Assembly (NCBI GenBank): GCA_020639315.1
Contig: JACKGM010000001.1
Location: 225,878-289,877, forward strand
Source of the DNA: Candidatus Nomurabacteria bacterium
GTDB taxonomy: Bacteria; Patescibacteriota; Saccharimonadia; JAGOAT01
Direction: 5' to 3'
DNA length: 64,000 nucleotides
The translations under genes were made by a program, and so were the position numbers. The notes below the pieces were generated by a model, which saw nothing but the letters and a program-made list of their open reading frames with translations, did not search any database and was not told where the DNA came from. Positions 7,945 to 36,755 of the stretch are shown here, piece after piece. Numbering within the stretch: the stretch's first letter is position 1; each line of letters opens with the position of its first letter.

Positions 7945-8075
7945 AGAGAAATTTCGCTGGTGTTCATCCCAAGGTGTCACCGTACAAATTAAGTGATTTA
8001 TGTCATAATCCAGGTAGACGGTATCTTTTTGTATCAAAAATACCTGCAAGGTTTCACCTCAATAAACCTCAATAA

Positions 8076-8912: not shown

Positions 8913-8918
8913 GTTATT

Positions 8919-8952
8919 TTGGACTAGTTTTGTTTGAAGATTGATATATAAT
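8919..8952 (+). promoter_or_regulatory. Putative sigma70-like promoter (TTGGAC-N17-TGATATATAAT) upstream of the giant gene at 8992. It is followed by a GGAGGG Shine-Dalgarno sequence.
   Basis: Hexamers read from the sequence. The SD ggaggg lies immediately upstream of ATG 8992. Confidence 0.3.
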
Positions 8953-8991
8953 ATTAGTTAAGCTTAAGGCAGATAGAATAGAGCTGGAGGG

Positions 8992-11900: not shown

Positions 11901-12921
11901 GTTTGAAGTCATCCGCCGTCTCTTCGGTCCCTACTTCGCGATCGAAGATGGTTCAGCCACAGTGCTCGGGGAAATAGTCAAAGGTGTCTATCCTGAAGAC
12001 AATGACCTAGACATCACTCGTCATACCCACATCCTGACCGCCACCAATGAAATCTCTTCAATCTTCTGCTCACTAACCGAGATCATGGCAGCCGGAGAGA
12101 GTGTAGACTGTACTAGTCCTAGTGACCTAGCTGGAGCCGGATACCCAATCCGTCTAGACGGAGGTAGCAAGGACAACTTTGTCAATGTACTTGACTCAAT
12201 AGAGAGTCTAATCGCAGAACCAGACTCCTCCCCCTATGAAGTAGTTACTATTAACAACCTAAACCAAATCCCCCTTGACCTCAGTGATGGTAAGAGCCCA
12301 GACTTCGAACCTGATCCCAACTCCACCACTACCCCAGTCCCTTACCCCACCCTCTATGTCTATGATGGAGATCTAGAGATCTCAGCTAGTCAAGCTATGC
12401 ACTACAATGCAGGTCTAGCTACTATCTACGTCAGGGGTAATGTCTACATCAATGGAGACATCATCAGAGATGACAATACAGTGATAGAAGACATAGATGA
12501 GTATCCCAACCTAGGTATTATCTCTACTGGCAATATCTACATCAGACCAGACACCTCCAAATCAGTAGAGACTCCCCAAGTAATTGACGCCAGTCTCTTC
12601 GCCCAAGGTATGATCGAAACAGCCTACCGTCAAACCACTCAAACCCCAATCCCCGAATACTATACCAACCAACCCCTAATCTTCCATGGTACAGTAGCCT
12701 CCAAGGGAGATGAGAGTGTCCCAGGAGTCAAAGACCCAATCACCAATCAAGTCTATGCCTTCAAACTAAACAGGACCAATGTCTCAGTCACCCTAGGACA
12801 AGACTGTAACAATACTCAAGTCTCTGAATGCTTTGCACCAGACAACTCAATCTTTATTGCTACTCCTCCGGGGTTTGAGGATCGGTTGGGGGAACTAAAT
12901 AGTGATGAGATAGTATATTAG
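8992..12921 (+). CDS. Giant modular surface protein paralog 1 (1309 aa). It has an N-terminal TM anchor, DUF11-like 'conserved repeat domain' modules, and the shared ~330-aa C-terminal beta-helix-like domain.
   Basis: ATG with GGAGGG RBS. TM helix WLIAGLLFVIGLGLFAY. DUF11-like motifs VKFGPGESITYKISVQNISQYQAINVRVTDNDLP and GKPIKWRISVTNNGPDSAVSLVND. The 3' ~1 kb is near-identical to three downstream genes. Confidence 0.85.
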   Translation: MEENNNNQVGAKARKPRFTHWVRSEWLIAGLLFVIGLGLFAYQGNKPEQITEQPEPTTVLEEGQVAIVGDEILTEETLAGYVEYNQIDRNQAIDQWVDLKRMQIAAEQVGLDLVTGYTTRVGDYPGSFDDRDIELENQFYKEALSAELARQQAGKPVGGVMVWNFIKLGNSGQYEVDQETKDYAFAQAKDYKSRLESGEIKIVDAVAEQSLDPRVKFPTVGSISASFGYYPDQELVDTLRFNSKEVFDTIGSQDIAGISEILTYSTSQYQEKDGNIDAGYYLYYLDKANPARPQIEEEYNKADQEITVTIKDRESQETEAVSWISALAPIAEAADANGIPTQQELHWLVHSNPTAAAADYGVDPTVLNFALYFGVVTLDGQLYDSEVQWKIEGYLPDPEYKYKGTDVLECPDCDARIFGDARSFVAPDPNNMYPPGYDLGLPRIGNSVSTTTSDGNFDLLRNDGLVMDCFGAVAQIKVTATIPAIGKSITTPASGFRNILNTTITYDRFDFTSDPEPEEPEPAGDAEVEIKKWVINETETPGQPQDANTADRAVKFGPGESITYKISVQNISQYQAINVRVTDNDLPTQYADFSGWNGTWYVGNLSPGTYKKIEIKGTIKTEFQDYDYYTNTARVDYQYKVPCTAQEKLIHDIPYILASTSPPPCPDKILSGSDDDPANIKPKYADLKIVKTTYDTDNQTAYKGKPIKWRISVTNNGPDSAVSLVNDRGAIVQDRVPVESLQGETAKWYCNPTNYCQPNSGIVTRANPVIKTEVFLKNSYATVDIFIEGVVGPYIDGGSNVETIPTLEICNPSNDLLEVVSDTYVPWDPNEEDNTYERSCVPVVVCYDEDGNQLTNYPGVPFPDEYVHMVGVDNEGDDLYNPDNSNQVFDLNGYDIICRLPDPPPKEPGTKVCDVIGFYEDEKGNKTEIEVHRDLFQGSAAGADTTAVGHYTFEISCYETTESPTHSSIEFEVIRRLFGPYFAIEDGSATVLGEIVKGVYPEDNDLDITRHTHILTATNEISSIFCSLTEIMAAGESVDCTSPSDLAGAGYPIRLDGGSKDNFVNVLDSIESLIAEPDSSPYEVVTINNLNQIPLDLSDGKSPDFEPDPNSTTTPVPYPTLYVYDGDLEISASQAMHYNAGLATIYVRGNVYINGDIIRDDNTVIEDIDEYPNLGIISTGNIYIRPDTSKSVETPQVIDASLFAQGMIETAYRQTTQTPIPEYYTNQPLIFHGTVASKGDESVPGVKDPITNQVYAFKLNRTNVSVTLGQDCNNTQVSECFAPDNSIFIATPPGFEDRLGELNSDEIVY
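11896..12892. repeat. Copy 1 of the ~1-kb near-identical 3' coding tract (EVIRRLFGPYFAIEDG...ATPPGFEDR) shared by four giant genes.
   Basis: Nucleotide strings are identical to 17118-18107, 24165-25152 and 32325-33315, apart from a handful of SNPs. Confidence 0.9.
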
Positions 12922-12982: not shown

Positions 12983-15900
12983 ATGGACAAAGGTAATCGA
13001 CACGGTCATCATCGCAGTTTACTTGGATTGTTTGCTGGCAGTATGATGCTATTGCTACTTGCAGGAGTCTTCTTGATTGGCATTAGAATGCAACAAAACC
13101 AGTTGCCAGGAGGGATTGTCGCTCAGGTCGGTGACCAGAAGCTAGGTGAAGAGCAGTACAATGATTTGGTCAATGCTGGTCAAAATTATGGTAATGATGC
13201 CGAGACAGTCAAACAATCCTGGGAGGAGCTGAAGCGAATCGAGATTGCCAATAAGGAGATTGGTCTAGAAATACCAGACGAAAGTCTCAATCGACTGAGA
13301 GACGGGTTTGACCAGACCAACCTTGATACCAATATTGTTCTTCAAAAAAATCTTTACAAGGAGGCAACCGAGCTAGAGCTCAAACGCAAGTCGGAAGGAG
13401 AGTTTACGGGGGGAGTATTAGTCTTTGATGCTTTAGCTTTCACTGGAGACAGGATGGTGAGTGATCCAGATAAGTTAGCGGAGGCCAAGGCTTATGCCGA
13501 GGAAGTTCACCAGAAATTGGTCGATGGTACTTGGGATTTCGATCAGGCATATAGTGATCTAGTCGATGGGATTAAATTCAATTTCCCATCCTCACCGAAT
13601 AATAGTATTAAATTTTCCAAGGATAGTAGCTATACAGATTTAGAACAGGTTTATTATTATCAAGATCAAATTGTTGATTATCTCAAGCAGGGAAAAGAAG
13701 GGCTATCGGGTGTAATGGAGTATAAGTCTAATAATATCAACTCTGATGATACGGGAGAAGATACAACAGTAGGTTATTTTATAGCAGTAGTTGACAGTCA
13801 TACTTCCGCTCAATCAGATATTCAATCAAAGTACAATCAGCAGATTAGTTCTTTGACCCCTAATAATTACCTTGCCAAAATATTAAATTGGCTAGGTCAG
13901 TCAGCTGATGCCAATGTGATAACATATAATAACAGTTTATCTGGGGATAAACATAATATTAAAGGTGCCAACGACTTATTCGGTAATCTGGCAGGCAAAT
14001 ATAGAAACTTAAACGGGACTACATATAGCGGTCCAGTATTATGGACTGTTTCTTTGACTAAACAATCATCTCAGTTTTGGGATGCTAATACATCAAATGG
14101 TTTGAGGGGAAGTTTTAATCATAATGGCAAGGTCAACATGTTTAACTACAACAATGGATTGGTCAAAAGTGTCTTTGTTGATGTAAACAAATATAATTAC
14201 AAAGGTCTTACAATACCAACTACAAGTAATATATTTGATGAAGCAAGTGGATTTAACAATCCGGATTATTGTCAAGGAGTTTGCCCTTACTTGCCACCAG
14301 TAAATGCTGATAGTGCTGGGGCACCAAATAGCCTGGTCCTATTAACAAAGACTGGTGATATGAATATGTATCGTGATTTTGGTATTCGTTACCATTGTAA
14401 TGGGGGACAGACTAAGTTTATTGTGACTGCTAGGCCTGCTACTCCACAGAATATAGTTGCCAGTACGGTTGATGGAGGGAAAGTATTGGGTTTAACCGAT
14501 CATCTAATATCAAGGGTTTATGCAGAGGAAGCTGGATCTGGTGCAAGTGTAGGTGCCACTACTGACGCTGGAGTAGATGTAGTGTCAGGAGCAAACCAAC
14601 CTGGGCATCAGGGTGGTGGTAATCCCCCTACAGGTGAAGTAGCAGAGCCAAAACCTGGGCAAGAACCTCCCGAAGTTCCAGAGCCTGAAAACCCACTTCC
14701 ACCAGTTGAGCCACCAGTAATCAAGATGATCAAAGAAGTCAGAAACGCTAGTATTGAGGGCAGTGAATTCGTCGATGCCAATTTCGAGACATTGGAAGAA
14801 GCTAAGGCCAATGCTGAATCGGTCAGATTCCATCCCGGGGATACTATAGAGTACAAAATCACTGTCAACAATGAAGGTCCTGGTTTTGCTAGAGAAGTCA
14901 CAGTGACCGATGATGATTTGGCAGATTTTGCCGATTGGAATGAATTTGACGGGTATTTAGGGGATTTAGCAGAAGGGGAATCGAAAGAACTATTAATTAC
15001 TGGTAGGATTAAGTCAGATTATGATTTTAGTCAGGCTGCTGATTTGTACCAAAAGAATATCGCTAATACTACTTGCAAATATGATGGGCTAGCTGACAGC
15101 GTCAAGATTTTAGCCAATAGTGATTTAATATCCCAACTAACTAGTCAATTTGGAGTTGCACAAAATCAGATCGATGATTATTTAAATGAGAACGGATTAA
15201 CTGATAAGGTTAGTGGTGACCAGGACTGTCAGCCAGTCTCCGACCCAGCTCATATTTCACCAAAAGTAGTCGACCTCACCATACTCAAACAAGTAGCAAA
15301 CCTCACCGAAACCCCATTCCTCTCCCCAGGCACAAGTCCCTACTACCTCAGTGATGGTCCTATCTACTATGATGCAGATAGTATAGACAATGCAGTCTCC
15401 TTCGGTCCTAGTGAAGAGATAGAGTACCGTATAGAGATAATAAACAACGGTCCAGACGAAGCCACCTCTATCAGCTTCACTGATCCTGATCTCCCAGATG
15501 AGCTAGTAGACTGGGAGTCAGACGGCTGGATCAACGCTGAGACTGGTGAAACCGTATCCTCAGGAGATACCATCTTCCCAATCCCAGCCGAAGGAGCTCC
15601 GACTGAATTCCTCTGGCCTGAAGAGTCCAAGACGATTGATCCTGAGACCAAAGCAGAAACCACAGTCAACAATATCACTGAAGGTAAGAGAGTCAGAATA
15701 GTCCTAACCAAGAAAGGTAGAATCAAGAACGACCTAGCTAATACCGATTGGTTCCAGTCTAATACTGCTCACCAAAACACTGCAGAAGTCTCTACTATCA
15801 ATCCAGAAACCAACTATGACAACAATACCAACGATGCCTACATCGACCCCAAGGTCACAGACATCATCATCGGTAAAGTCGGTCAGACTGGTAATGACAC

Positions 15901-18136
15901 TGGTCTAGCAGGTAAAGAACTAACTTGGACGATTAGAGTAGTCAACAATGGCAAAGACTCAGCTATCTCTCTCGTAGACAATGGAGGAATCAAGCTAATC
16001 GACTACCTCAACCTCAAAGACACCTACAATGAAACAGTTACCTATCAATGTGTCCCTGCCTATGCCTGCAGTGTCCCAACCGGAGAAATCAACTCCACTG
16101 ACAATCCCGAAGGTATCCTAGACCTAGAACTCTACCTCGGCCCTGGCTTTGGAGACACCGAGCAAGTAGACTTCATCGATATCCTCTCAGATGAGGAGCT
16201 GTCAGCCAACCAAACCGACACTACCACCAACAACACCACCACCAACACTGACACCACCCAAACCACCAATACTGATCTAACCACCCTCCCCGTCTGTGAG
16301 ACTGGTAGATTCATCGGTATTAACAAGGCTACTGACACTACTACAGGCTTCAACCCCGATATCAACGAGGATGGCAATGGAGACCTCTATGTTCTCTTCA
16401 ATACCAATTGCTTTAGCTCCTACCCTGACCTCAGCCACTTCGAGCTAACAGACCTCTCCCTTAGCAGTGATGAAGTAGTCAACTACCTCACCCAGTATCA
16501 AGGTGGTAAAATTGCTTACTATCAAACCCCTACTCACCTAAACACCACCAATCAAGTAGACATCCAAATCACCGCTAGACTAGCTGACCATGTCACCTAT
16601 GGTGATGATGTCACTACTCAAGCAGTAGATGAGATCTGTAATCCTAGTGACAAGAACAACCCTGATCAAAAAGTCCATGTCGAAAAGACCGAAACCGTAG
16701 CCTGGGAATTGTCACTAGACAATAACACCGCTCCCCTAAGATGTATCCCAGTAATGCTCTGTTACAACGAAGATGGTCAAGCCTTAGCTAGCTATCCCGG
16801 TAAAGAAGGAGAAGACTTCTATCTCTCATTCGTCGGAGTAGACAATGAAGGTAACAAACTCTATGATCAATCTCTAGATGAACTAATCGCTAGAGATGAC
16901 TTAGCAGGACTAGATGTGATCTGTCGTAAGCCTACTACCTGTGAGCTTAAAGTAACGCGGACGATAGTACTAGCCAATGGTACAGAAGAAACCACTGATG
17001 TCGAAGTCACCGAACTATTTGATGGCTCAGCTGCTGGTGCTGATACCACTGACCTCGGATACTACAACTTTAGCCTAGAGTGTCAAAACCTCGAAGACGG
17101 ACAATCCCCCAACCTCACGATTGAAGTCATCCGCCGTCTCTTCGGTCCCTACTTCGCGATCGAAGATGGTTCAGCCACAGTGCTCGGGGAAATAGTCAAA
17201 GGTGTCTATCCTGAAGACAATGACCTAGACATCACTCGTCATACCCACATCCTGACCGCTACCAATGAAATCTCTTCAATCTTCTGCTCACTAACCGAGA
17301 TCATGGCAGCCGGAGAGAGTGTAGACTGTACTAGTCCTAGTGACCTAGCTGGAGCCGGATACCCAATCCGTCTAGACGGAGGTAGCAAGGACAACTTTGT
17401 CAATGTACTTGACTCAATAGAGAGTCTAATCGCAGAACCAGACTCCTCCCCCTATGAAGTAGTTACTATTAACAACCTAAACCAAATCCCCCTTGACCTC
17501 AGTGATGGTAAGAGCCCAGACTTCGAACCTGATCCCAACTCCACCACTACCCCAGTCCCTTACCCCACCCTCTATGTCTATGATGGAGATCTAGAGATCT
17601 CAGCTAGTCAAGCTATGCACTACAATGCAGGTCTAGCTACTATCTACGTCAGGGGTAATGTCTACATCAATGGAGACATCATCAGAGATGACAATACAGT
17701 GATAGAAGACATAGATGAGTATCCCAACCTAGGTATTATCTCTACTGGCAATATCTACATCAGACCAGACACCTCCAAATCAGTAGAGACTCCCCAAGTA
17801 ATTGACGCCAGTCTCTTCGCCCAAGGTATGATCGAAACAGCCTACCGTCAAACCACTCAAACCCCAATCCCCGAATACTATACCAACCAACCCCTAATCT
17901 TCCATGGTACAGTAGCCTCCAAGGGAGATGAGAGTGTCCCAGGAGTCAAAGACCCAATCACCAATCAAGTCTATGCCTTCAAACTAAACAGGACCAATGT
18001 CTCAGTCACCCTAGGACAAGACTGTAACAATACTCAAGTCTCTGAATGCTTTGCACCAGACAACTCAATCTTTATTGCTACTCCTCCGGGGTTTGAGGAT
18101 CGGTTGGGGGAGACTAATGGAGGGCTTAGCTACTAA
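12983..18136 (+). CDS. Giant modular surface protein paralog 2 (1717 aa). It has an N-terminal TM anchor, DUF11-like modules, a Thr/Asn-rich linker and the shared C-terminal domain.
   Basis: ATG with GGAGGG RBS. TM LLGLFAGSMMLLLLAGVFLIGI. DUF11-like motifs VRFHPGDTIEYKITVNNEGPGFAREVTVTDDDL and VSFGPSEEIEYRIEIINNGPDEATSISFTDPDLP. The last 2.9 kb is identical to tracts in the genes ending at 25163 and 33326. Confidence 0.85.
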   Translation: MDKGNRHGHHRSLLGLFAGSMMLLLLAGVFLIGIRMQQNQLPGGIVAQVGDQKLGEEQYNDLVNAGQNYGNDAETVKQSWEELKRIEIANKEIGLEIPDESLNRLRDGFDQTNLDTNIVLQKNLYKEATELELKRKSEGEFTGGVLVFDALAFTGDRMVSDPDKLAEAKAYAEEVHQKLVDGTWDFDQAYSDLVDGIKFNFPSSPNNSIKFSKDSSYTDLEQVYYYQDQIVDYLKQGKEGLSGVMEYKSNNINSDDTGEDTTVGYFIAVVDSHTSAQSDIQSKYNQQISSLTPNNYLAKILNWLGQSADANVITYNNSLSGDKHNIKGANDLFGNLAGKYRNLNGTTYSGPVLWTVSLTKQSSQFWDANTSNGLRGSFNHNGKVNMFNYNNGLVKSVFVDVNKYNYKGLTIPTTSNIFDEASGFNNPDYCQGVCPYLPPVNADSAGAPNSLVLLTKTGDMNMYRDFGIRYHCNGGQTKFIVTARPATPQNIVASTVDGGKVLGLTDHLISRVYAEEAGSGASVGATTDAGVDVVSGANQPGHQGGGNPPTGEVAEPKPGQEPPEVPEPENPLPPVEPPVIKMIKEVRNASIEGSEFVDANFETLEEAKANAESVRFHPGDTIEYKITVNNEGPGFAREVTVTDDDLADFADWNEFDGYLGDLAEGESKELLITGRIKSDYDFSQAADLYQKNIANTTCKYDGLADSVKILANSDLISQLTSQFGVAQNQIDDYLNENGLTDKVSGDQDCQPVSDPAHISPKVVDLTILKQVANLTETPFLSPGTSPYYLSDGPIYYDADSIDNAVSFGPSEEIEYRIEIINNGPDEATSISFTDPDLPDELVDWESDGWINAETGETVSSGDTIFPIPAEGAPTEFLWPEESKTIDPETKAETTVNNITEGKRVRIVLTKKGRIKNDLANTDWFQSNTAHQNTAEVSTINPETNYDNNTNDAYIDPKVTDIIIGKVGQTGNDTGLAGKELTWTIRVVNNGKDSAISLVDNGGIKLIDYLNLKDTYNETVTYQCVPAYACSVPTGEINSTDNPEGILDLELYLGPGFGDTEQVDFIDILSDEELSANQTDTTTNNTTTNTDTTQTTNTDLTTLPVCETGRFIGINKATDTTTGFNPDINEDGNGDLYVLFNTNCFSSYPDLSHFELTDLSLSSDEVVNYLTQYQGGKIAYYQTPTHLNTTNQVDIQITARLADHVTYGDDVTTQAVDEICNPSDKNNPDQKVHVEKTETVAWELSLDNNTAPLRCIPVMLCYNEDGQALASYPGKEGEDFYLSFVGVDNEGNKLYDQSLDELIARDDLAGLDVICRKPTTCELKVTRTIVLANGTEETTDVEVTELFDGSAAGADTTDLGYYNFSLECQNLEDGQSPNLTIEVIRRLFGPYFAIEDGSATVLGEIVKGVYPEDNDLDITRHTHILTATNEISSIFCSLTEIMAAGESVDCTSPSDLAGAGYPIRLDGGSKDNFVNVLDSIESLIAEPDSSPYEVVTINNLNQIPLDLSDGKSPDFEPDPNSTTTPVPYPTLYVYDGDLEISASQAMHYNAGLATIYVRGNVYINGDIIRDDNTVIEDIDEYPNLGIISTGNIYIRPDTSKSVETPQVIDASLFAQGMIETAYRQTTQTPIPEYYTNQPLIFHGTVASKGDESVPGVKDPITNQVYAFKLNRTNVSVTLGQDCNNTQVSECFAPDNSIFIATPPGFEDRLGETNGGLSY
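15265..18107. repeat. Copy 1 of the ~2.9-kb near-identical coding module (two DUF11-like domains, TN-rich linker, beta-rich domain and C-terminal domain).
   Basis: Matches 22215-25152 and 30385-33315 base for base, except for an in-frame ~81-nt shorter (ACC/AAC)-rich linker at about 16200-16265. Confidence 0.9.
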
Positions 18137-18150
18137 TATCTAGGTAAATA

Positions 18151-19980
18151 ATGTCAATCAAAACAAAAATATTAGCAGGAGGTTTGGTTGCTAGCCTGAT
18201 CTTAGTAGTGATTGGCTTTGGTTACTATAGCCAGTTGAGCCAAGGATTGATCAAGCTAGGGGCTAGCTATCTAGATCAAGCTTACCTTGCCAGTCGAGTA
18301 GAGCTAGCTGAAGATTACGGGGTTGATGCTAGGACTGCTCTAAGAGCCAGTGCAGATTTTGATCAGTATTATCAGATTTCTAGAGAATTAGGGCTCGAGA
18401 TTACAGAGCAAGATTTAAGGGACACCGGGTATTATCTAGAGCAAGAATATAGAGAAAACATTTTATTTAGGGCCAATACATTTAAAAGAGCCTTGGATAT
18501 TAAGGTAGAGGGTAGATCTAGGGGGCAGTACCAAGGAGCTCTTTTTACATTTCCAATCGTTAGCTATGACAACCAAGAAGGGGTGATTAGGAGCGCTACT
18601 GCTGCGTCCAAACAATATGCCCTAGACCAAGCAAACCAATACCGTGAAGCGATTGCTTCAGGAAAAGACCCCGAGGTCTTGATCGAGCAAATCAAGTCAG
18701 ATCCTAGGCTAGATTTGCCGATGGCGGATAATAGCTCAAGATTAGTAGGCTACAAAGAAAATGAAAGCTGGCAAAATATCCTTGGCGCTTATCATGAGGA
18801 TGTTATTGCTGAGCTGGAGAGAGGGGTAGATCCTGGACTAGGTGAAGTAAAGTTGGCCTATAGTTACCGGGAGGATCCAGCAGATCAAGAGGAGTTTATG
18901 TATTACTTTATCGATATCGCTGAGCACGAGCCAAAGGATTCGGAGATAGATCAACTCTACCAGAGCAAGCTAGCAGATAAGAGCTTGTTACTAAGCCTGC
19001 TAAATAAGCTTGATCATAGTGACCTAGAAATAGTACCAGAAGTCTATGCGGATGAGAGTAGTAACCATCAGGCCACAGAGTCGATACGCAATCAAATGAT
19101 TGCTGCTAATCCTAGAGCAAGATTGTTTGGTGATGTCCAGGGTCAGGTACTTGGTAGTGATAACAAAGGAGTATTTGGGGCTATTGTCAAAGTGACTTTT
19201 GAGATACAAGTATCAAATTGTCTAGAGTGTGACTGGGCTTTTGTTCGGGCTAAGGATATCTTGACACCGGCAGAAGTGGCAGCAGTCAAGCAGGGTACTC
19301 TCCAGTCTATCGGTAGTTCTGCCAATGAATTTGCCCCAAGGTACAAAGAGACAAGTATTGAACTAGTCACAGATGAGGAAGGCTGGTGGTCACTCAGTAG
19401 TATTGGGCTACTAGTCGACTGTAATACATCTGGAGGACACCCTCCGACTAAGATTAAGTACAAGGTATATGATATTTTTGATGGAGATATTTCGGATTTG
19501 CCTAGTAGTATCGGTGAGGCTGATCTCAACTATGTAGGGGTCAATTCGGTTACTAGTATAGTTGGCGGCTCTGCTCCTACCCAAAGTATCGGGACTAGCC
19601 AGGCGGGGATAGTCAATGTCGGTGGAATCAATGTAGCACAGTCGATTGCCGGTAATCTAGCTAAAATGCTTGATGCCGCCAAGGCCGACGGGGTCAATTT
19701 ATCAGGAGGTGGATATCGATCAAATGCGACCCAAGTACAGCTGAGGATAAGCCACTGTGGATCTTCAAACTATGCAATTTACCAGATGCCATCCAGCCAG
19801 TGTAGTCCACCGACTGCTAGGCCAGGTAAATCGAACCATGAGAAGGGCTTAGCAATCGATTTTAATAATTGTAGTAGTCGGAGTACTGCTTGCTATAGAT
19901 GGCTCAACGCTAACGCAAATCAGTATGGATTTTATAATTTGCCGAGTGAATCTTGGCACTGGTCGGTCAATGGCAAATAG
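18151..19980 (+). CDS. Membrane-anchored secreted protein (609 aa) with a C-terminal peptidase M15 (VanY / D-Ala-D-Ala carboxypeptidase-like, LAS superfamily) domain. Its N-terminal ~450 aa are homologous to the N-terminal module of the giant protein at 25278.
   Basis: TM LAGGLVASLILVVIGFGYY. Zinc-peptidase motifs SNHEKGLAIDF (SxHxxGxAxD) and ESWHWS in the last 90 aa. Protein-level similarity to ORF 25278 residues ~140-520 (NCLECDWAFV vs NCAECDSAFV; GWWSLSSIGLLVDCN vs GYFSLSAIDIVFDCN). Confidence 0.65.
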   Translation: MSIKTKILAGGLVASLILVVIGFGYYSQLSQGLIKLGASYLDQAYLASRVELAEDYGVDARTALRASADFDQYYQISRELGLEITEQDLRDTGYYLEQEYRENILFRANTFKRALDIKVEGRSRGQYQGALFTFPIVSYDNQEGVIRSATAASKQYALDQANQYREAIASGKDPEVLIEQIKSDPRLDLPMADNSSRLVGYKENESWQNILGAYHEDVIAELERGVDPGLGEVKLAYSYREDPADQEEFMYYFIDIAEHEPKDSEIDQLYQSKLADKSLLLSLLNKLDHSDLEIVPEVYADESSNHQATESIRNQMIAANPRARLFGDVQGQVLGSDNKGVFGAIVKVTFEIQVSNCLECDWAFVRAKDILTPAEVAAVKQGTLQSIGSSANEFAPRYKETSIELVTDEEGWWSLSSIGLLVDCNTSGGHPPTKIKYKVYDIFDGDISDLPSSIGEADLNYVGVNSVTSIVGGSAPTQSIGTSQAGIVNVGGINVAQSIAGNLAKMLDAAKADGVNLSGGGYRSNATQVQLRISHCGSSNYAIYQMPSSQCSPPTARPGKSNHEKGLAIDFNNCSSRSTACYRWLNANANQYGFYNLPSESWHWSVNGK

Positions 19981-20857
19981 AGGAGTGCAGGTCATCGCTA
20001 GCATTGTCCTGGTAGGCTTAACTATCCTAGGAGGATACCACTACTGGCGATCAAATCAATCAGTCAGTGCAAAATTGATCCTGGAGGAGTATCAGGACTT
20101 TTATCATTTAGAAGAAAATCGGTACCTTGGTGACAAAGGAGAGGGAAGGTTGGATTTGATCCAGTTGGACGGAGACAGGCCTAGGGTCGATCAGTCGATT
20201 GATTATATCAGCTATTTTGTAATCCCTAGTCAGGTGATTATTTTTGACCAGGCTGGAGTCAGTGCATACTCTACTAGAGACTTTTCTAAGCAGAACCAAG
20301 ACGGTCAGTATATTCTGGGCAATCTTGACGGGGATAATATTTACCTTGATCAAGCTGGGAGCAATGACGATGATACTCTGGTCAGACTAGATTATAGGCT
20401 CAGGGGTGAACTTGTCGGTGAAGAGTTGGTGACCAGCTTGGAGGTAGCACCGATTTTTGCTAATATCGGTACCAATCATTATAGGCTGGTCTTTGATCAG
20501 TTGACCGCTACACTTGCAGTCACCCCGATCGACAAAGACTTTGAAGCGTCTGGTCAGACTGTCAGCTACAACAATGTCAAGACTTGGCGAATCGAGCAAG
20601 ATTATCTCGCGATTGACTTGTTGGATGATAGTGGTCAGAGATTTGTGGCTGAAGATTTGCTTGAGCTAAACACTACACCCTTGATCGGGCTTTGTGTTGA
20701 TTATCAATTGGGCAAGGATTACCTTTATCTAGATTATAAGACTAGACTTGATTTGCCAGCTGAGATCGATAATCAGTCCAAAGTTTATTGTCATCAAGAT
20801 AATATTTATATTTGGCTTGGACAAAAGCTATATGAGGCAAAAAGAGATGAAGTCTAG
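19970..20857 (+). CDS. Hypothetical N-terminally anchored protein (295 aa). The start overlaps the upstream stop by 11 nt (ATGGCAAATAG).
   Basis: ORF in the track begins at 19925. The internal ATG at 19970 (MANRGVQVIASIVLVGLTILGG) gives a signal anchor and an 11-nt overlap, as seen at other junctions here. No recognisable domain. Confidence 0.5.
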   Translation: MANRGVQVIASIVLVGLTILGGYHYWRSNQSVSAKLILEEYQDFYHLEENRYLGDKGEGRLDLIQLDGDRPRVDQSIDYISYFVIPSQVIIFDQAGVSAYSTRDFSKQNQDGQYILGNLDGDNIYLDQAGSNDDDTLVRLDYRLRGELVGEELVTSLEVAPIFANIGTNHYRLVFDQLTATLAVTPIDKDFEASGQTVSYNNVKTWRIEQDYLAIDLLDDSGQRFVAEDLLELNTTPLIGLCVDYQLGKDYLYLDYKTRLDLPAEIDNQSKVYCHQDNIYIWLGQKLYEAKRDEV

Positions 20858-23800
20858 ACTGTTGATATTCGGTATCCTGATAGTCGGAGTTTTTGGTCTG
20901 ATGCAGATGGTTCGACCTAGCTTGGCTGGGACTGAGCCTCCAACCCCTGAGCTTAGCCAAGAGGCATTTGACAAGGCTTTTAATCTTGAGCCCGACCAGT
21001 TTGAAGACTTTAAGACAGTCTATGGCAAGAGTGAGTATAGCCCCTTTTATGCCAAGGTTAGCCCAGCGACTCCCGAAGTCGGAAATCTTTGCTGGAAAAC
21101 AGCGGAGGAGACTGATACTGAGGCAGAGCCAACCCAATCCCAGCTAGAAGATCCTGAGTATCAGCAGTCCTTGGAGGATTGTCAGGATTGGTTGATTTCT
21201 CTCAATCCGTATTTAGCTAGAGAGATTTACCGGGATTATCTCAAGACTACCGATTGGTTCAAGGGCAGCGAATCACTGTCGGACAATGATCTGATCTATG
21301 GCAAGATGGGGGTAATGGTTTACTGCCAGGTATTGGGTCAAGATTATCAATTGAGCTTTGACGATGATAAGCAGAAGTGTTTAGAATCGATTACTGACTA
21401 TGATCAGACTGACGAAGCAGGGGTTTGTAAGGATCTAGAAGAGTTTGGGTACAATTGGGAAGATCAAGCTTGTAAGTATAGTCTGGAGTCATCAGATAAT
21501 TCTGAGCTAGATCAAGCTATAGATCAGCTTGACTTAGACCAGAACTCTAGTGCCGACGCTGGTGGTGGCCCTCCTGCAGGTAAAGTTTTAGGCAGAATAA
21601 ACGCTAGTGGGGAGTGTGAAGTAGACAATCCAATCTTGCAGTGGTGTCCACCGGTAGTGCTTGATGCGGCTGCTCCGACTGGCACTAGTGTCAGTGGCCT
21701 AGGGACTGAACCGAGAAAGGGCATACCTGATCCGCCCCGTAGCTCTGAGATTAGTAACAAGCCTGACGATTTGGGTGAGCGAGAACGCCCCGTCATCTCG
21801 ATCAAAAAATACGTCGGTCACACAGTAGATGATCTCAGTGATGCCCAAGACTCAGCTACAGCTGTCAAGTTCTATCCTGGTCAATCGATAGTCTATCAAG
21901 TAGTAATTACTCATCAGTCTGGAGCAGATGCGACCAAAGTAGTCTGGTCTGATGAAAACCTTGATGGATTTGTCTCAGGTGGACTGATGGAACTAGGAGA
22001 TTGGACTAGTGATACTCAAGTAGATGACATCTTCTCCTTCCCTCTCAAACAAGGAGAAGAGATTACCTTCTTAAGAGAAGGCACAATCTCCCTAGATGCT
22101 GGTCTCTTCGGTCTAGATCAAGAATCAGTTCTTAACTCAACTGCTGCCCTTGAAAACATCGCCAGTGTCGATGAACTCAATGATGCTGATCCTGGGATTG
22201 CTAGTAGTGATCCCGCTAATATCTTACCAATGCTTTCAGACCTCACCCTCCGTAAGCAAGTCTCCAACCTCACCGAAACCCCATTCCTCTCCCCAGGCAC
22301 AAGTCCCTACTACCTCAGTGATGGTCCTATCTACTATGATGCAGATAGTATAGACAATGCAGTCTCCTTCGGTCCTAGTGAAGAGATAGAGTACCGTATA
22401 GAGATAATAAACAACGGTCCAGACGAAGCCACCTCTATCAGCTTCACTGATCCTGATCTCCCAGATGAGCTAGTAGACTGGGAGTCAGACGGCTGGATCA
22501 ACGCTGAGACTGGTGAAACCGTATCCTCAGGAGATACCATCTTCCCAATCCCAGCCGAAGGAGCTCCGACTGAATTCCTCTGGCCTGAAGAGTCCAAGAC
22601 GATTGATCCTGAGACCAAAGCAGAAACCACAGTCAACAATATCACTGAAGGTAAGAGAGTCAGAATAGTCCTAACCAAGAAAGGTAGAATCAAGAACGAC
22701 CTAGCTAATACCGATTGGTTCCAGTCTAATACTGCTCACCAAAACACTGCAGAAGTCTCTACTATCAATCCAGAAACCAACTATGACAACAATACCAACG
22801 ATGCCTACATCGACCCCAAGGTCACAGACATCATCATCGGTAAAGTCGGTCAGACTGGTAATGACACTGGTCTAGCAGGTAAAGAACTAACTTGGACGAT
22901 TAGAGTAGTCAACAATGGTAAAGACTCAGCTATCTCTCTCGTAGACAATGGAGGAATCAAGCTAACCGACTACCTCAACCTCAAAGACACCTACAATGAA
23001 ACAGTTACCTATCAATGTGTCCCTGCCTATGCCTGCAGTGTCCCAACCGGAGAAATCAACTCCACTGACAATCCCGAAGGTATCCTAGACCTAGAACTCT
23101 ACCTCGGCCCTGGCTTTGGAGACATGGAGCAAGTAGACTTCATCGATATCCTCTCAGATGAGGAGCTGTCAGCCAACCAAACCGACACTACCAACAACAA
23201 CACCACCACCAACAACAACACTAACACCACTAACACCAATAACACCAACACCACCACCAACACTAACACTACCAACAACACTACCAACAACACTGACACC
23301 ACCCAAACCACCAATACTGATCTAACCACCCTCCCCGTCTGTGAGACTGGTAGATTCATCGGTATTAACAAGGCTACTGACACTACTACAGGCTTCAACC
23401 CCGATATCAACGAGGATGGCAATGGAGACCTCTATGTTCTCTTCAATACCAATTGCTTTAGCTCCTACCCTGACCTCAGCCACTTCGAGCTAACAGACCT
23501 CTCCCTTAGCAGTGATGAAGTAGTCAACTACCTCACCCAGTATCAAGGTGGTAAAATTGCTTACTATCAAACCCCTACTCACCTAAACACCACCAATCAA
23601 GTAGACATCCAAATCACCGCTAGACTAGCTGACCATGTCACCTATGGTGATGATGTCACTACTCAAGCAGTAGATGAGATCTGTAATCCTAGTGACAAGA
23701 ACAACCCTGATCAAAAAGTCCATGTCGAAAAGACCGAAACCGTAGCCTGGGAATTGTCACTAGACAATAACACCGCTCCCCTAAGATGTATCCCAGTAAT

Positions 23801-25163
23801 GCTCTGTTACAACGAAGATGGTCAAGCCTTAGCTAGCTATCCCGGTAAAGAAGGAGAAGACTTCTATCTCTCATTCGTCGGAGTAGACAATGAAGGTAAC
23901 AAACTCTATGATCAATCTCTAGATGAACTAATCGCTAGAGATGACTTAGCAGGACTAGATGTGATCTGTCGTAAGCCTACTACCTGTGAGCTTAAAGTAA
24001 CGCGGACGATAGTACTAGCCAATGGTACAGAAGAAACCACTGATGTCGAAGTCACCGAACTATTTGATGGCTCAGCTGCTGGTGCTGATACCACTGACCT
24101 CGGATACTACAACTTTAGCCTAGAGTGTCAAAACCTCGAAGACGGACAATCCCCCAACCTCACGATTGAAGTCATCCGCCGTCTCTTCGGTCCCTACTTC
24201 GCGATCGAAGATGGTTCAGCCACAGTGCTCGGAGAAATAGTCAAAGGTGTCTATCCTGAAGACAATGACCTAGACATCACTCGTCATACCCACATCCTGA
24301 CCGCTACCAATGAAATCTCTTCAATCTTCTGCTCACTAACCGAGATCATGGCAGCCGGAGAGAGTGTAGACTGTACTAGTCCTAGTGACCTAGCTGGAGC
24401 CGGATACCCAATCCGTCTAGACGGAGGTAGCAAGGACAACTTTGTCAATGTACTTGACTCAATAGAGAGTCTAATCGCAGAACCAGACTCCTCCCCCTAT
24501 GAAGTAGTTACTATTAACAACCTAAACCAAATCCCCCTTGACCTCAGTGATGGTAAGAGCCCAGACTTCGAACCTGATCCCAACTCCACCACTACCCCAG
24601 TCCCTTACCCCACCCTCTATGTCTATGATGGAGATCTAGAGATCTCAGCTAGTCAAGCTATGCACTACAATGCAGGTCTAGCTACTATCTACGTCAGGGG
24701 TAATGTCTACATCAATGGAGACATCATCAGAGATGACAATACAGTGATAGAAGACATAGATGAGTATCCCAACCTAGGTATTATCTCTACTGGCAATATC
24801 TACATCAGACCAGACACCTCCAAATCAGTAGAGACTCCCCAAGTAATTGACGCCAGTCTCTTCGCCCAAGGTATGATCGAAACAGCCTACCGTCAAACCA
24901 CTCAAACCCCAATCCCCGAATACTATACCAACCAACCCCTAATCTTCCATGGTACAGTAGCCTCCAAGGGAGATGAGAGTGTCCCAGGAGTCAAAGACCC
25001 AATCACCAATCAAGTCTATGCCTTCAAACTAAACAGGACCAATGTCTCAGTCACCCTAGGACAAGACTGTAACAATACTCAAGTCTCTGAATGCTTTGCA
25101 CCAGACAACTCAATCTTTATTGCTACTCCTCCGGGGTTTGAGGATCGGCTTAGCTCAGAGTGA
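20847..25163 (+). CDS. Giant modular surface protein paralog 3 (~1438 aa). It has an N-terminal signal anchor, an acidic Cys-containing unique region, shared module A, the 2.9-kb shared module and the shared C-terminal domain.
   Basis: Start moved from 20748 to the ATG at 20847 (MKSRLLIFGILIVGVFGLMQMV), which overlaps the upstream stop by 11 nt. The sequence from 22215 onward is identical to 15265-18107 and 30385-33315. Confidence 0.8.
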   Translation: MKSRLLIFGILIVGVFGLMQMVRPSLAGTEPPTPELSQEAFDKAFNLEPDQFEDFKTVYGKSEYSPFYAKVSPATPEVGNLCWKTAEETDTEAEPTQSQLEDPEYQQSLEDCQDWLISLNPYLAREIYRDYLKTTDWFKGSESLSDNDLIYGKMGVMVYCQVLGQDYQLSFDDDKQKCLESITDYDQTDEAGVCKDLEEFGYNWEDQACKYSLESSDNSELDQAIDQLDLDQNSSADAGGGPPAGKVLGRINASGECEVDNPILQWCPPVVLDAAAPTGTSVSGLGTEPRKGIPDPPRSSEISNKPDDLGERERPVISIKKYVGHTVDDLSDAQDSATAVKFYPGQSIVYQVVITHQSGADATKVVWSDENLDGFVSGGLMELGDWTSDTQVDDIFSFPLKQGEEITFLREGTISLDAGLFGLDQESVLNSTAALENIASVDELNDADPGIASSDPANILPMLSDLTLRKQVSNLTETPFLSPGTSPYYLSDGPIYYDADSIDNAVSFGPSEEIEYRIEIINNGPDEATSISFTDPDLPDELVDWESDGWINAETGETVSSGDTIFPIPAEGAPTEFLWPEESKTIDPETKAETTVNNITEGKRVRIVLTKKGRIKNDLANTDWFQSNTAHQNTAEVSTINPETNYDNNTNDAYIDPKVTDIIIGKVGQTGNDTGLAGKELTWTIRVVNNGKDSAISLVDNGGIKLTDYLNLKDTYNETVTYQCVPAYACSVPTGEINSTDNPEGILDLELYLGPGFGDMEQVDFIDILSDEELSANQTDTTNNNTTTNNNTNTTNTNNTNTTTNTNTTNNTTNNTDTTQTTNTDLTTLPVCETGRFIGINKATDTTTGFNPDINEDGNGDLYVLFNTNCFSSYPDLSHFELTDLSLSSDEVVNYLTQYQGGKIAYYQTPTHLNTTNQVDIQITARLADHVTYGDDVTTQAVDEICNPSDKNNPDQKVHVEKTETVAWELSLDNNTAPLRCIPVMLCYNEDGQALASYPGKEGEDFYLSFVGVDNEGNKLYDQSLDELIARDDLAGLDVICRKPTTCELKVTRTIVLANGTEETTDVEVTELFDGSAAGADTTDLGYYNFSLECQNLEDGQSPNLTIEVIRRLFGPYFAIEDGSATVLGEIVKGVYPEDNDLDITRHTHILTATNEISSIFCSLTEIMAAGESVDCTSPSDLAGAGYPIRLDGGSKDNFVNVLDSIESLIAEPDSSPYEVVTINNLNQIPLDLSDGKSPDFEPDPNSTTTPVPYPTLYVYDGDLEISASQAMHYNAGLATIYVRGNVYINGDIIRDDNTVIEDIDEYPNLGIISTGNIYIRPDTSKSVETPQVIDASLFAQGMIETAYRQTTQTPIPEYYTNQPLIFHGTVASKGDESVPGVKDPITNQVYAFKLNRTNVSVTLGQDCNNTQVSECFAPDNSIFIATPPGFEDRLSSE
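22215..25152. repeat. Copy 2 of the ~2.9-kb near-identical coding module. It carries the expanded TN linker at about 23170-23300.
   Basis: Direct comparison with 15265-18107 and 30385-33315. Confidence 0.9.
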
Positions 25164-25277: not shown

Positions 25278-28200
25278 ATGAAAAAGAGAAGTTTATATAA
25301 ACCAAATAAAAGTGAGGGAAAGTTGAGTAATACAAAGTTTAATTTGAGGCATTTACTACTAAGTCTAAGTGGTGTCTTGGTAGTCGTGGCTATCAGCATT
25401 GGGATAGTCAAATTCATCGACTATAGCAATCCCGTGGTCGTCAGTATTGACGGAGTCGAGATCCGAGAAAACACCTTTGACAAAAATATCGAGCTAGGTA
25501 AAGACTACGACAATGGTAGAGAAGACATAGTCAATGCCACAATCGACCTCGAAGCTTGGAAGAAAATCAACCAAAACCTCGGAGTTGTCCCTCCCGACTC
25601 CTTTATCATGGAGTATGCTAGTCGATATACCGAGCAGGCAGTCAAAGAAAACGTAATCCTCCAAAAGAACCTCTACAAATACGCCACCGAGCAAATGATG
25701 CTCAATCAATACTACGGGCTCTATGATGGCGCAGTATTTGTCTTCCCATATGCCAATTTTGATCAGGGAGCTACAACGGAAGAGCAAGCCTACGCCAAGC
25801 AAAAAGCTGAGGAGTACCTAGCGAGATTTTCTAGTGGCGAAGATCCCAGATCACTAATCGACGAGATCTATGCAGATAGGAGCCTAGAGCCAGCCGTCGA
25901 TGCCCAAAATCCATCGACAATCCTCGGATTTTACGAAGATCAGAGCCCCTATGATCAATACAGGATGGGCTACTCAGAGCTACTCAATGATATTTGGTCG
26001 ATCGAGAATCGTGGTACTAGTCAGATAGTCGATATCCCTGAAGATAGAGAAAATCGTTCTGGTGGATACTACTATTTCTACAATATCAATGATTATCAGT
26101 CTCCGAGGCTAGATATCCAAGAGAGCTATGATACAGAAGTCGAGAGAATAGCTACAGACTTGACTACCCAAGCAGACAAGATCAATCGAGTCGGTCAGAG
26201 TACGGTATCCTTCCTCGGTAATAAACTCAAGGATTTAGCAATCCAGCCAGCTTACGCCAAGGATACTGTCGAGGCTCATCAGTCTGGGCCAAGTGTGCTA
26301 TTAAAGCTGATGAACGATAAGAGCTATGAGGGTAGGACACTGATCGAGCGGTTCGCTGATGTCTCTGGTAGGGTATTGGGTAGCAATGGAGATCCTTACC
26401 CCAATGCTATCGTCAGGATTAAATACAAAGATGTGCTTAAGCAAAATTGTGCAGAGTGTGATAGTGCCTTTGTCGATGTCGGTAAGATTGGTTTGGGTTC
26501 ATCTACCAATGAAAACGCTCCTCGAGTAGACTACCGCAAGGCAGGTATAGGTAAGCTCCATGATACTCCTGAGATGCAGGGTTATCACGACTATGTCGAG
26601 GTGATTTCAGGGGAGAGTGGGTATTTCTCTCTATCTGCTATTGACATAGTGTTTGACTGTAATCGCGTCAAGACAGAGTACGGAGATGGTCATCCAATAG
26701 ATGTCAATATGGAAGCCTTGGATGTCTATAAAGATGCAGAGATATCACTGGGAGGGCTAGATAGTATCAACGATCAGATAGCGATAGTCGATACTGAGCA
26801 AGTAGGGGGTAATATCGACCTTGCTTTCGCCAAGCCAGAGCATGATAGTGGATACTTGGATCGACTAGCCAGCACAGTCGGAAGTATCTTCCAGCTCGCC
26901 CGGATACCTTTAGTCCAAGGGGCGCAAGGGGGTTATGGGGAGTTAAAACCCGATGAGAATAATCAACTTGTGGACCTAGAGGATAAGAGATTCGGCCATT
27001 ATAGGGATAAGATTCAATATTTTAGAGAGAAAAGTGAGATGAATCTTGACTCTAATTTCGCAGCTGAACAATATAATTCCTATGATCCAGCTGGAAACAT
27101 AGATAAAGAGACAATGGCTTCAATTTTACTTGATACAGTAAACGGATATCTTACAGACCCGGATTTCCAGATTAATAAAGATCAGGCGCAGGGTTTAGTA
27201 GGTCTTTTATTTGCATGTGATGTTATTTATCAGGAGGGGGATAATGAAAACTATTGGTACTATGCCAATCTTATAGACAGTGATGGTAATCATCCACTGG
27301 ACTGCATGTCGCATTTTGTAGTCGAGGATGTCTTGATGGCAATTGGGATGGACCTAAGGGTAGATAATGTCTATACCAACCCTACCTTCCCCCATGCTTT
27401 CCAGGTTGATTTTCGGGAACCCCCTGAGAATTGGCCTAATGATCGGGAAGGAACAGGATCAGCAAAGGATGGGTTTGTAGTATTTTGCGAGGCAACAGGT
27501 TACAAAACAAACGATGCTAGGGATAGGTGTATACTGGATAAGTCTGATACAGAGCAAGCAACCGACGAATCAGACGACGATAACTTTGCTGAACCTAACA
27601 AACTTGCAAGGCAATGTAGCTATTTTCTTTGGGAGTTAGACCAAGCAAGGTACGAAGCGCTAGAAGGTAGAGATTGTACGAGCCTTGTGGATAAGGGAGA
27701 AGTAGGTTCTCTTAATGGAATATCAAGACGGACATTATGTGTTGATCGTTGGGGGTATACGTTTGGTAGCAACCAATGTGTCCCACCTGATGGTGTAACA
27801 TACCCTTCTAGGCGGGAAAGTTTTTGTAAAAATATAACAAATTTCATATTTAGTAATAATAGATGCAATATGTCAGGATACGAGCAAGGCGCAAGTCTGG
27901 AGCTAGCAGAAGAGTATAAAAATGCAGTATTTGGAGATGCAGTTAATGCTTCTCCGGCTCAACTTTGCTCCGACTTTTACGTAGCATTAGAGATTATGCC
28001 ACCTGGGACATATAATAGTTATGAAATGCTTAGTCAATATGGGCTGACGAATGGGAAGTATGTCTGTGATCCTAACAATTATGAGTTTAACTCTGAGACA
28101 GAGAAATATCAACTTAAAGAGAGAGGCTCTTCCTCTGACAATGAGTCTCCTAACGACGGTGTTAGCCCTGAGGTAGGCTCTACTACAGAAGACCGCCGTT

Positions 28201-36754: not shown

Positions 36755-36755
36755 T

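Follow-up and report, generated by a model that had tools for sequence, protein, structure and literature searches.

The gene considered here lies in a stretch of 64,000 nucleotides of contig JACKGM010000001.1 (positions 225,878 to 289,877; assembly GCA_020639315.1, deposited as Candidatus Nomurabacteria bacterium), which we call the window and whose own numbering is used throughout. Five giant open reading frames (ORFs) of 2415, 1309, 1717, 1471 and 2682 amino acids (aa) are encoded in this window. Next to the 1717-aa giant, at 18151..19980 of the plus strand, lies a complete gene with an ATG start that encodes a protein of 609 aa. Judged by its motifs and domain matches, this protein is very probably an anchored, extracytoplasmic peptidase of the M15B family. 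Its N-terminal part is homologous to that of some of the giants, which suggests a wall enzyme mounted on a module that also serves very large surface proteins.

Five segments can be distinguished along the peptidase, all on the plus strand. A signal-anchor (residues ~5-27, 18163..18231) is followed by a PrsA/PpiD-like module (residues 32-292, 18244..19026), which was delineated by AlphaFold2 (AF2), Foldseek and profile searches. Then come a β-rich extension (residues ~310-445, 19078..19485; BLASTP, profile and AF2), which contains Cys357, Cys360 and Cys424, and a Gly/Ser/Val-rich linker (residues ~449-486, 19495..19608), predicted to be disordered from AF2 and alignment. The C-terminus is formed by a compact zinc-peptidase domain of the VanY/LdcB type (residues 487-609 plus the stop codon, 19609..19980), on which Pfam, matches in the PDB and alignment agree. 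The only hydrophobic maximum in a Kyte-Doolittle profile falls on residues 1-30, and the AF2 model places the anchor helix at 3-30 with Lys residues ahead of it. No obvious signal-peptidase site is found in the anchor, for which an N-in/C-out orientation is predicted. Both the 609-aa frame and its single transmembrane anchor had been described in an earlier note on this DNA, made without database searches, and both are borne out by the ORF list and the hydrophobicity profile.

The gene model in GenBank is shorter. MCB9834605.1, named D-alanyl-D-alanine carboxypeptidase family protein, comprises only the last 419 aa and starts at M191; the 190 residues that it lacks (18151..18720) include the anchor and half of the N-terminal module. 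The identical 609-aa sequence is called in Logan assemblies. Because residues 1-190 are homologous to the orthologue P0002 described below, to three of the giants and to a family of stand-alone proteins, the 609-aa start is by sequence comparison the right one. The contig on which the neighbouring 1717-aa protein is deposited (MCB9834604.1, H6792_01055) bears the name Ca. Nomurabacteria; fragments that are nearly identical go under Ca. Saccharibacteria, and the relatives and synteny of the peptidase locus point to Saccharibacteria.

The assignment of the enzyme rests on its C-terminal domain. VanY (PF02557) is the single Pfam domain found in the 609-aa protein. The match spans residues 494-604 and positions 3-127 of the 132 in the model, and at 48.0 bits (E 1.3e-12) it is well clear of the gathering score, which is 25. 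In an alignment of the peptidase with 24 relatives the zinc ligands H563 and D570 of the SxHxxGxAxD motif and H603 of the ExWH motif are intact and invariant, as are R523 (of a GYR motif) and E600. From structures of LdcB and VanY we take E600 to be the catalytic Glu and R523 to be the Arg that meets the substrate carboxylate. Cys536 and Cys551 are likewise invariant in this catalytic subfamily, in line with an extracytoplasmic location of the domain, and all 25 aligned sequences stop a few residues beyond ExWHWSxNG. The earlier note had proposed a C-terminal LAS/M15 domain from the motifs SNHEKGLAIDF (561-571) and ESWHWS (600-605), had quoted both correctly and had suggested a Pfam search as a check; with a VanY match above cut-off and the H-D-H ligands in place, its assignment holds.

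Sequence and profile searches of the PDB point in the same direction and match M15B enzymes only, namely VanY_B (5hnm, 6a6a, 5zhf) at E 2e-9 to 2e-14 and LdcB/DacB (4ox3, 4nt9, 4d0y, 4mph, 4ox5, 4jid) at E 1e-7 to 2e-5. LdcB/DacB and VanY are themselves M15B enzymes tethered to the membrane by an anchor or as lipoproteins; their domains are extracytoplasmic, and their substrates are the stem peptides of peptidoglycan. More specific assignments were rejected. The NCBIfam models for the VanY resistance carboxypeptidases score 34 bits against a cut-off of 400 (VanY-B/G, NF000473) and 16.7 against 425 (VanY-A, NF000472), and the LdcB/DacB equivalog (NF041194) scores 24.5 bits against 275. Because these scores are far under the cut-offs, the peptidase is, as far as its sequence tells, a member of the M15B family and not an orthologue of the characterised enzymes. 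A van operon context was looked for as well, and no vanH/A/X/R/S-like genes are present in the 64-kb window. An origin of the catalytic domain from a phage endolysin was dismissed, since even the best phage matches, which extend over most of the domain, do not exceed 35% identity.

The homology to the giants concerns the region between anchor and linker. BLASTP aligned residues 50-448 of the peptidase with residues 71-490 of the 2682-aa giant (E 2e-33, 26% identity over ~447 columns), and a second BLASTP comparison recovered residues 30-490 of the same giant at E 2.6e-30. For the 1717-aa giant, residues 7-290 of the peptidase match residues 16-307 (E 1e-10), and for the 1309-aa giant, residues 12-286 match residues 27-313 (E 3e-6). 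The corresponding modules, all on the plus strand, lie at 25365..26747 (residues ~30-490 of the 2682-aa giant, gene 25278..33326), at 13028..13903 (residues ~16-307 of the 1717-aa giant, gene 12983..18136) and at 9070..9930 (residues ~27-313 of the 1309-aa giant, gene 8992..12921). The 1471-aa and 2415-aa giants gave no BLASTP similarity to the peptidase. The earlier note had recognised the homology to the 2682-aa protein, which is now well established, and had placed it at residues ~140-520, where the real limits are ~30/71-490. Its statement that all four giants share the module has to be corrected: three of the five do, and the motifs quoted for it come from these three giants and the peptidase.

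Two layers can be recognised within this module. A core of ~260 residues, contained in the first ~290, is found in all carriers, while a β-rich extension of ~150 residues is found in few: by BLASTP it is common only to the peptidase, the 2682-aa giant, P0002 and a fourth protein, P0124, in which profile positions up to 433 were matched. A shared module of ~450 aa, as previously suggested, is therefore real for the 2682-aa giant, whose module is of this long form, and the other carriers in the window share the first ~290 residues only. The extension aligns with residues ~330-490 of the 2682-aa giant (BLASTP) and is modelled by AF2 as strands at 330-442 with a predicted local distance difference test (pLDDT) score of 56-81; its Foldseek matches to MG/Ig-like domains are weak, and a Pfam search with it returned no match. 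In the linker that follows, pLDDT falls below 50 (residues 449-480) and there is little conservation relative to P0002.

A profile search against 1.84 billion representatives returned 197 relatives of the module. Besides truncated copies of giants of the window, nearly all of them are stand-alone proteins of 290-390 aa that are matched end to end, which amounts to ~190 stand-alone homologues. The earlier note had made its proposal depend on the significance of this similarity, which is now supported both by the profile search and by BLASTP values down to E 2e-33. In the peptidase, no Pfam or NCBIfam model matches this family. The module is also combined with cargo of another kind. P0124 (MCA9349426.1, Ca. 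Saccharibacteria), whose module is 41% identical to that of the 2682-aa giant, continues after a long module with GDSL esterase and SLT_2 transglycosylase domains. P0124 directly supports the view of the earlier note that one and the same module is combined with different kinds of cargo.

What kind of fold does this module adopt? For residues 32-292 AF2 gave a confident model (pLDDT 88.6, predicted template modelling (pTM) score 0.82), and for residues 1-480 a model with pLDDT 76. The module model consists of a β-hairpin, a helical N domain (43-124), a parvulin-like β-α3-β-α-β2 domain (126-260) and C-terminal helices (266-287); the motif ALFTFPI, found at 130-136 as previously quoted, forms β1 of the parvulin-like domain. 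When the 32-292 model was compared with the PDB by Foldseek, PrsA of L. lactis (6vj2) came first (E 2.4e-3, probability 0.84), and the next match had E 0.44. Across both models the PrsA structures 6vj2 and 5tvl were found at E 4.7e-3 and 2.4e-3 with probabilities of 0.75-0.84 over ~290 columns, and PrsA is the only notable match in the PDB. PrsA is the monoderm member of the SurA/PpiD chaperone group, in which PpiD combines an N-terminal transmembrane anchor with an inactive parvulin domain.

Sequence comparisons within the family add to this picture. Pfam matches to SurA_N_3/SurA_N_2 occur at E<0.01 in 6 of 52 module homologues, and one of the homologues, P0130, is alone in exceeding the gathering score of SurA_N (30.3 bits against 27.2). 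The 1717-aa paralogue has a faint SurA_N_3 match (E 0.054), and a profile search of the PDB aligned SurA in register at E 2.4-4.5, which is not significant. The SurA/PpiD-like character suggested earlier has no Pfam counterpart in the peptidase itself, and it gains moderate support from PrsA as the top fold match of two models and from the SurA_N matches in homologues. Conserved among 100 family members are G129, F134, P135, Y156, A157, D184, S196 and the YYF at 251-253, and no column of the parvulin-like part contains a conserved His or Cys. Because these residues are missing, isomerase activity of the module appears unlikely, and it is probably dead as an isomerase. Fold match and gene order together make a PrsA-like escort or scaffold the probable nature of the module. 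A canonical peptidyl-prolyl isomerase (PPIase) with Rotamase and SurA_N_3/SurA_N_2 domains is encoded elsewhere in the window, at 45571..46773; it is probably the general PrsA/PpiD-type foldase of the cell and is distinct from the module family.

The gene order around the stand-alone homologues is informative. On 4 of 4 informative contigs (L085, L086, L087 and L089) a stand-alone module gene is followed by a gene for a large protein of 763-1253 aa and then by PilM, PilN, PilO, a small ORF and PilB of a type IV pilus (T4P) operon. PilT and PilC come next where the contig continues, and a fifth, short contig is consistent with the same order. The gene of the large protein abuts or overlaps that of the stand-alone module (pairs at L085:7880-11546, L086:1976-5186, L087:4606-8018 and L089:940-5691), and the module of the 1309-aa giant matches the stand-alone protein of L085 at E 3.5e-14. 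The large proteins have classical cleavable signal peptides and no Pfam domain was matched in them. Over their last ~150-300 residues these proteins show homology to the giants' C-terminal module, as seen by BLASTP at ~1e-6 from two independent proteins and by hhalign with 91% probability and E 1e-6, including a terminal PPG[FL][DE] motif. Because the large proteins of these operons share the C-terminal module of the giants, the 1309-, 1717- and 2682-aa giants have the appearance of an anchored module fused to a secreted large protein.

Wall enzymes are found near secretion genes in related genomes as well. P0124 is a truncated giant that lies ~500 bp beyond the last plus-strand gene of a type IV secretion system (T4SS) cluster (L004:10001-13056, GCA_020428505.1), which includes PrgI, TraC-like, VirB4-like and glucosaminidase genes. 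A VanY domain (46.8 bits) also forms the C-terminus of a 1012-aa protein from the same cluster (L004:3469-6507); it shares 56% identity with the peptidase domain and had been missed in the precomputed Pfam table. By gene order the 1012-aa protein matches SEML1_0007 of the cultivated Southlakia epibionticum, which is 1113 aa long, has residues 951-1105 assigned to the ECOD group Hedgehog/DD-peptidase and finds its closest structural counterpart in ‘Peptidase M15B’ (PMC10633639). SEML1_0007 was scored GD/ES/ES in transposon sequencing (Tn-seq) and lies within an essential T4SS cluster (PMC10633639). An M15B domain at the C-terminus of long envelope scaffolds is a Saccharibacterial theme, and at least one such protein is needed for epibiotic growth.

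These neighbourhoods allow for another interpretation, in which the module is a docking or oligomerisation domain that plugs its carriers into T4P or T4SS machinery and the peptidase is a wall cutter of the VirB1/PrgK type. The position of the stand-alone homologues as the first gene of the pilus operons on all four contigs and that of P0124 next to a T4SS cluster are as this reading would have it, and PrsA dimerises through its NC domain. Patescibacteria T4SS clusters also carry VirB1-like multi-domain hydrolases (PMC12102498). Yet pilus and T4SS genes are absent from the 64-kb window. Moreover, in the T4P1 operon of S. epibionticum YchF is directly followed by PilM and the pair of module and large protein is absent (PMC10633639), which argues that the module is not a core part of the machine. 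A docking role is in our view quite unlikely.

The immediate neighbourhood of the peptidase resembles the pilus operons. Its start lies 14 nt past the end of the 1717-aa gene, and its stop overlaps by 11 nt with the ATG (19970) of w310, a single-pass membrane protein of 295 aa according to both the junction sequence and NCBI (19970..20857, plus strand; 310 aa if started at 19925), for which no Pfam or NCBIfam match was found. The end of w310 in turn overlaps the likely start, at 20847 with GAGG upstream, of the 1471-aa giant (20847..25163, plus strand; ~1438 aa from this ATG). A scan for promoters and terminators found no terminator-like sites at the junctions between the 1717-aa gene, the peptidase, w310 and the giant. 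The 14-nt gap, the 11-nt overlaps and the lack of terminators at the junctions suggest that the peptidase is co-transcribed with its flanking genes. The 1471-aa giant itself has a cleavable-looking Sec signal peptide (…SLA|G), a DUF11 domain and the C-terminal module, and no N-terminal module.

The only orthologue of the peptidase found, P0002, is a protein of 596 aa with 64% identity (Logan contigs L001/L002). It is followed by a 309-aa protein 45% identical to w310 and then by the N-terminus of a giant 55% identical to the 1471-aa giant, so that the triad of peptidase, w310 and giant is kept in the orthologous locus. The triad mirrors the order of the pilus operons, a module gene and then a secreted large protein, with a wall enzyme added, and we propose the 1471-aa giant as the client of the module of the peptidase.

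Taken together, the protein could be described as a type-II membrane-anchored, extracytoplasmic peptidase for peptidoglycan stem peptides, built of a signal-anchor, a PrsA/PpiD-like module that is probably isomerase-dead, a β-rich spacer, a flexible linker of ~40 residues and a compact M15B peptidase. The module would sit close to the membrane and act there as an escort or holdase for surface proteins of very large size that are exported by Sec. In the pilus operons this function would be provided by the stand-alone homologues that precede a secreted protein of 760-1250 aa, and in three giants of the window both parts would be fused. The peptidase stands directly ahead of w310 and of the 1471-aa giant, the sole giant of the DUF11 cluster with a signal peptide and without a module of its own, and it would join the escort function to a tethered wall enzyme. 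This enzyme might trim stem peptides in the wall of the epibiont itself where the giants pass. Removal of terminal D-Ala would lower cross-linking locally, and the arrangement would be comparable to secretion systems that have specialised wall hydrolases of their own. We give this explanation as a whole a probability of about 45%, and the local remodelling of the cell's own wall for the giants, which the earlier note had also considered, is put forward as a tentative part of it.

A plainer explanation would be a housekeeping carboxypeptidase similar to LdcB/DacB, which matures or recycles the cell's own peptidoglycan everywhere in the cell; the N-terminal module would then be a mere anchor or spacer, and the position of the locus would mean nothing. 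The name given by NCBI, D-Ala-D-Ala carboxypeptidase family protein, fits this explanation, and the sole relatives in the PDB are anchored M15B enzymes of the LdcB/DacB and VanY types. The window also encodes MurT/GatD (35447..37466), RodZ and FtsK nearby, as expected of a cell with its own Gram-positive-style wall. The gene is missing from nearly all Saccharibacteria, however, and the full protein has no relative in 185k species representatives, which is odd for a housekeeping enzyme. Its NCBIfam score for LdcB (24.5 against 275) speaks against the assignment too, as do the triad that is kept with w310 and a giant and the nature of the module, a conserved, folded domain of 260 residues common to giants and proteins of pilus operons. 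For these reasons we regard a general housekeeping role as not very likely. The MurT/GatD pair, which serves the amidation of iso-glutamate in the stem peptide, indicates an amidated peptidoglycan of the Gram-positive style and bears on the own-wall substrates that the peptidase would meet.

The origin of the catalytic domain adds another aspect. The closest proteins among the 120 best matches of a word-indexed search with the domain are M15 proteins of 120-240 aa with 55-75% identity, and those with a taxon name all belong to Actinomycetota but one, chiefly to Acidimicrobiia. Three contigs with top matches have 65%, 67% and 74% guanine plus cytosine (GC), one of them with Tad-pilus genes, compared with 44% in the window. 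Relatives are encoded at 538 loci of the 185,579 species-representative genomes scanned. The 80 best loci are 55-69% identical with a median GC of 69%, carry an Actinomycetota label (chiefly Acidimicrobiia) with three exceptions, and include no Patescibacteria. In a scan of metagenomes, 24 of 25 loci with the catalytic domain have 64-76% GC. One of the best 80, L037:2680-3420, is the only one with clearly lower GC (47.6%); its contig carries the label of a metagenome-assembled genome of Gammaproteobacteria, and the 246-aa product matches the VanY domain with 61% identity at its C-terminus. A further transfer or wrong binning of the contig could explain this locus.

In a neighbour-joining tree the peptidase and P0002 pair in 99 of 100 bootstrap replicates, and three Saccharibacterial domains form one clade in 1 of 100. 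The subfamily to which the catalytic domain belongs is otherwise typical of Acidimicrobiia, and a horizontal exchange of the domain between Actinomycetota and Saccharibacteria is most likely. The GC of the domain at third codon positions (GC3) is 0.50, against 0.36-0.40 in the rest of the gene; because this is only slightly higher, the transfer, if there was one, would not be recent.

Such an origin brings the host into play. The tethered peptidase might act on the peptidoglycan of an attached host at the contact zone by means of a domain captured from the host lineage and thereby suited to the wall chemistry of actinobacteria. It would trim or cleave stem peptides there, so that the host wall is weakened or nutrients are set free. 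The Acidimicrobiia-like sequence makes the speculation of the earlier note about a host wall less far-fetched. Cultivated Saccharibacteria grow on Actinomycetota (PMC10633639), an attack on host walls has been suggested for wall hydrolases of predators of the Candidate Phyla Radiation (CPR; PMC8080830), and the domain is nearer to Acidimicrobiia and Actinomycetota enzymes, at 55-75% identity, than to another Saccharibacterial M15B domain. Spacer and linker are long and would extend the reach of the enzyme, a protein with an M15B domain is part of the T4SS cluster essential for epibiotic growth, and M15 domains also act as lytic modules of phage endolysins. Against this, the anchor appears uncleaved, so the enzyme would have to span the epibiont's own wall, and neither a secretion signal nor an effector-type feature was seen in the peptidase. 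An immunity gene was not identified, w310 being without Pfam or NCBIfam match, and the small difference in GC3 would make any transfer old. Action on the host wall is unlikely as the function of this protein. A combined version, in which membrane-anchored, isomerase-dead, PrsA-like ‘private escorts’ serve giant pilus-linked proteins of environmental Saccharibacteria and one of them captured an Acidimicrobiia peptidase domain for use on the host wall where the cells attach, is likewise improbable.

Several observations weigh against the explanation that we prefer, that of an escort joined to an own-wall enzyme. A carboxypeptidase takes off terminal residues and leaves cross-links uncut, so that a pure carboxypeptidase could open the wall only indirectly through lower cross-linking. 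The relationship of the module to PrsA is a weak fold match (TM ~0.25, root-mean-square deviation 10 Å); the peptidase itself has no Pfam match to SurA_N or Rotamase even at E 10, and when the module was compared by hhalign with the PPIase at 45571..46773, a single helix was matched, with 6-24% probability. The escort role for large Sec-exported surface proteins is read from gene order, which is its one basis. The triad, too, is conserved in one independent locus only. Furthermore, the full architecture is very rare. Among 5.8 billion proteins, no more than two clusters at 90% identity were retrieved when the full protein or the module alignment was used for word-indexed searches; a pattern scan of the 185k species-representative genomes with the full protein found zero relatives, and a scan of metagenome contigs of the JGI found relatives of the catalytic domain only and not the full architecture. 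With regard to the origin of the domain, the best 120 matches of the word-indexed search omitted P0001, which is 100% identical, and P0002, so the candidate set is incomplete, and the direction of transfer is read from abundance, the tree being unrooted.

The remainder of the giant cluster contains further features. Over ~1130-1170 residues at their C-termini the 1717-, 1471- and 2682-aa giants are 84-91% identical, and the last ~530 residues of the 1309-aa giant are 75% identical to the C-termini of these three. The shared C-termini look like the product of very recent duplications and of a cassette-style recombination among genes of surface proteins. Upstream of the first giant of this cluster, an intergenic region of ~1 kb (7945..8990) contains two arrays, at 8075..8689 and 8642..8913, in which a 247-nt unit is repeated 2.5 times (98% match) and a 29-nt unit (GGGTTTCGGAGGATGACAAGACAAGGGGC) 9.4 times; these arrays may be regulatory or serve phase variation. 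The 2415-aa ORF (58..7305), which may extend beyond the left edge of the window, consists of repeats of ~277 residues with six DUF903 matches and bears no relation to the other giants. A 211-aa membrane protein without a family match (7309..7944) comes 3 nt after it.

The enzyme class of the peptidase is ordinary, as the M15 or D-Ala-D-Ala carboxypeptidase family label is already present in GenBank; new here are the architecture, the module family and the relationship between phyla. A family of PrsA-like modules of ~260 residues that heads pilus operons in environmental Saccharibacteria and is fused to giants and wall enzymes is absent from annotation and from the literature searched, and the same is true for the description of giants as fusions of escort and client. 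With this family, the export of giant proteins by CPR bacteria and their mounting on the cell become accessible to study. A catalytic domain with 55-75% identity between Saccharibacteria and Acidimicrobiia, in turn, points to an exchange of genes between epibionts and a (potential) host lineage.

How does this protein compare with known systems? PrsA, PpiD and SurA work at a membrane-proximal extracytoplasmic site and have the order of a helical N domain, a parvulin-like domain and C-terminal helices that is predicted for the module. The module differs from them in being fused to cargo in the peptidase and in the giants, and in lacking the conserved catalytic set of His, Cys and Asp. With LdcB/DacB and VanY_B (MEROPS M15B; PDB 4ox3, 4ox5, 4mph, 5hnm, 5zhf) the peptidase has PF02557 and the GYR, SxHxxGxAxD and ExWH motifs in common. 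Its domain is only ~30% identical to theirs and is a shorter form with the Cys pairs of its subfamily, and they have no counterpart to the scaffold of 480 residues, PrsA-like and β-rich, that precedes it.

The M15 peptidases of Acidimicrobiia (Iamia, Aquihabitans, Microthrixaceae; P0003-P0122, L005-L084) are closer, with a domain that is 55-75% identical, the same C-terminal end and the same Cys and catalytic residues. In contrast to the peptidase, these are small secreted proteins or lipoproteins encoded on DNA of 65-76% GC, sometimes fused to SLT_2 or peptidoglycan-binding domains and never to a PrsA-like module; going by their names, none of them is a characterised enzyme. SEML1_0007 and its counterpart at L004:3469-6507 resemble the peptidase in that a long scaffold without enzymatic parts ends in an M15B domain, whereas this scaffold is a different one without the PrsA-like module and lies in a T4SS context; the catalytic domains are 56% identical and are not sisters in the neighbour-joining tree. 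VirB1, PrgK and TraG of pIP501, finally, are wall enzymes that are encoded with a large apparatus and act locally (PMC12102498), as we propose here. They belong to the lytic transglycosylases, CHAP enzymes or amidases and cut glycan strands or cross-links, while the enzyme in the window is an M15B peptidase next to giant surface proteins, with no secretion machine recognised in the window.

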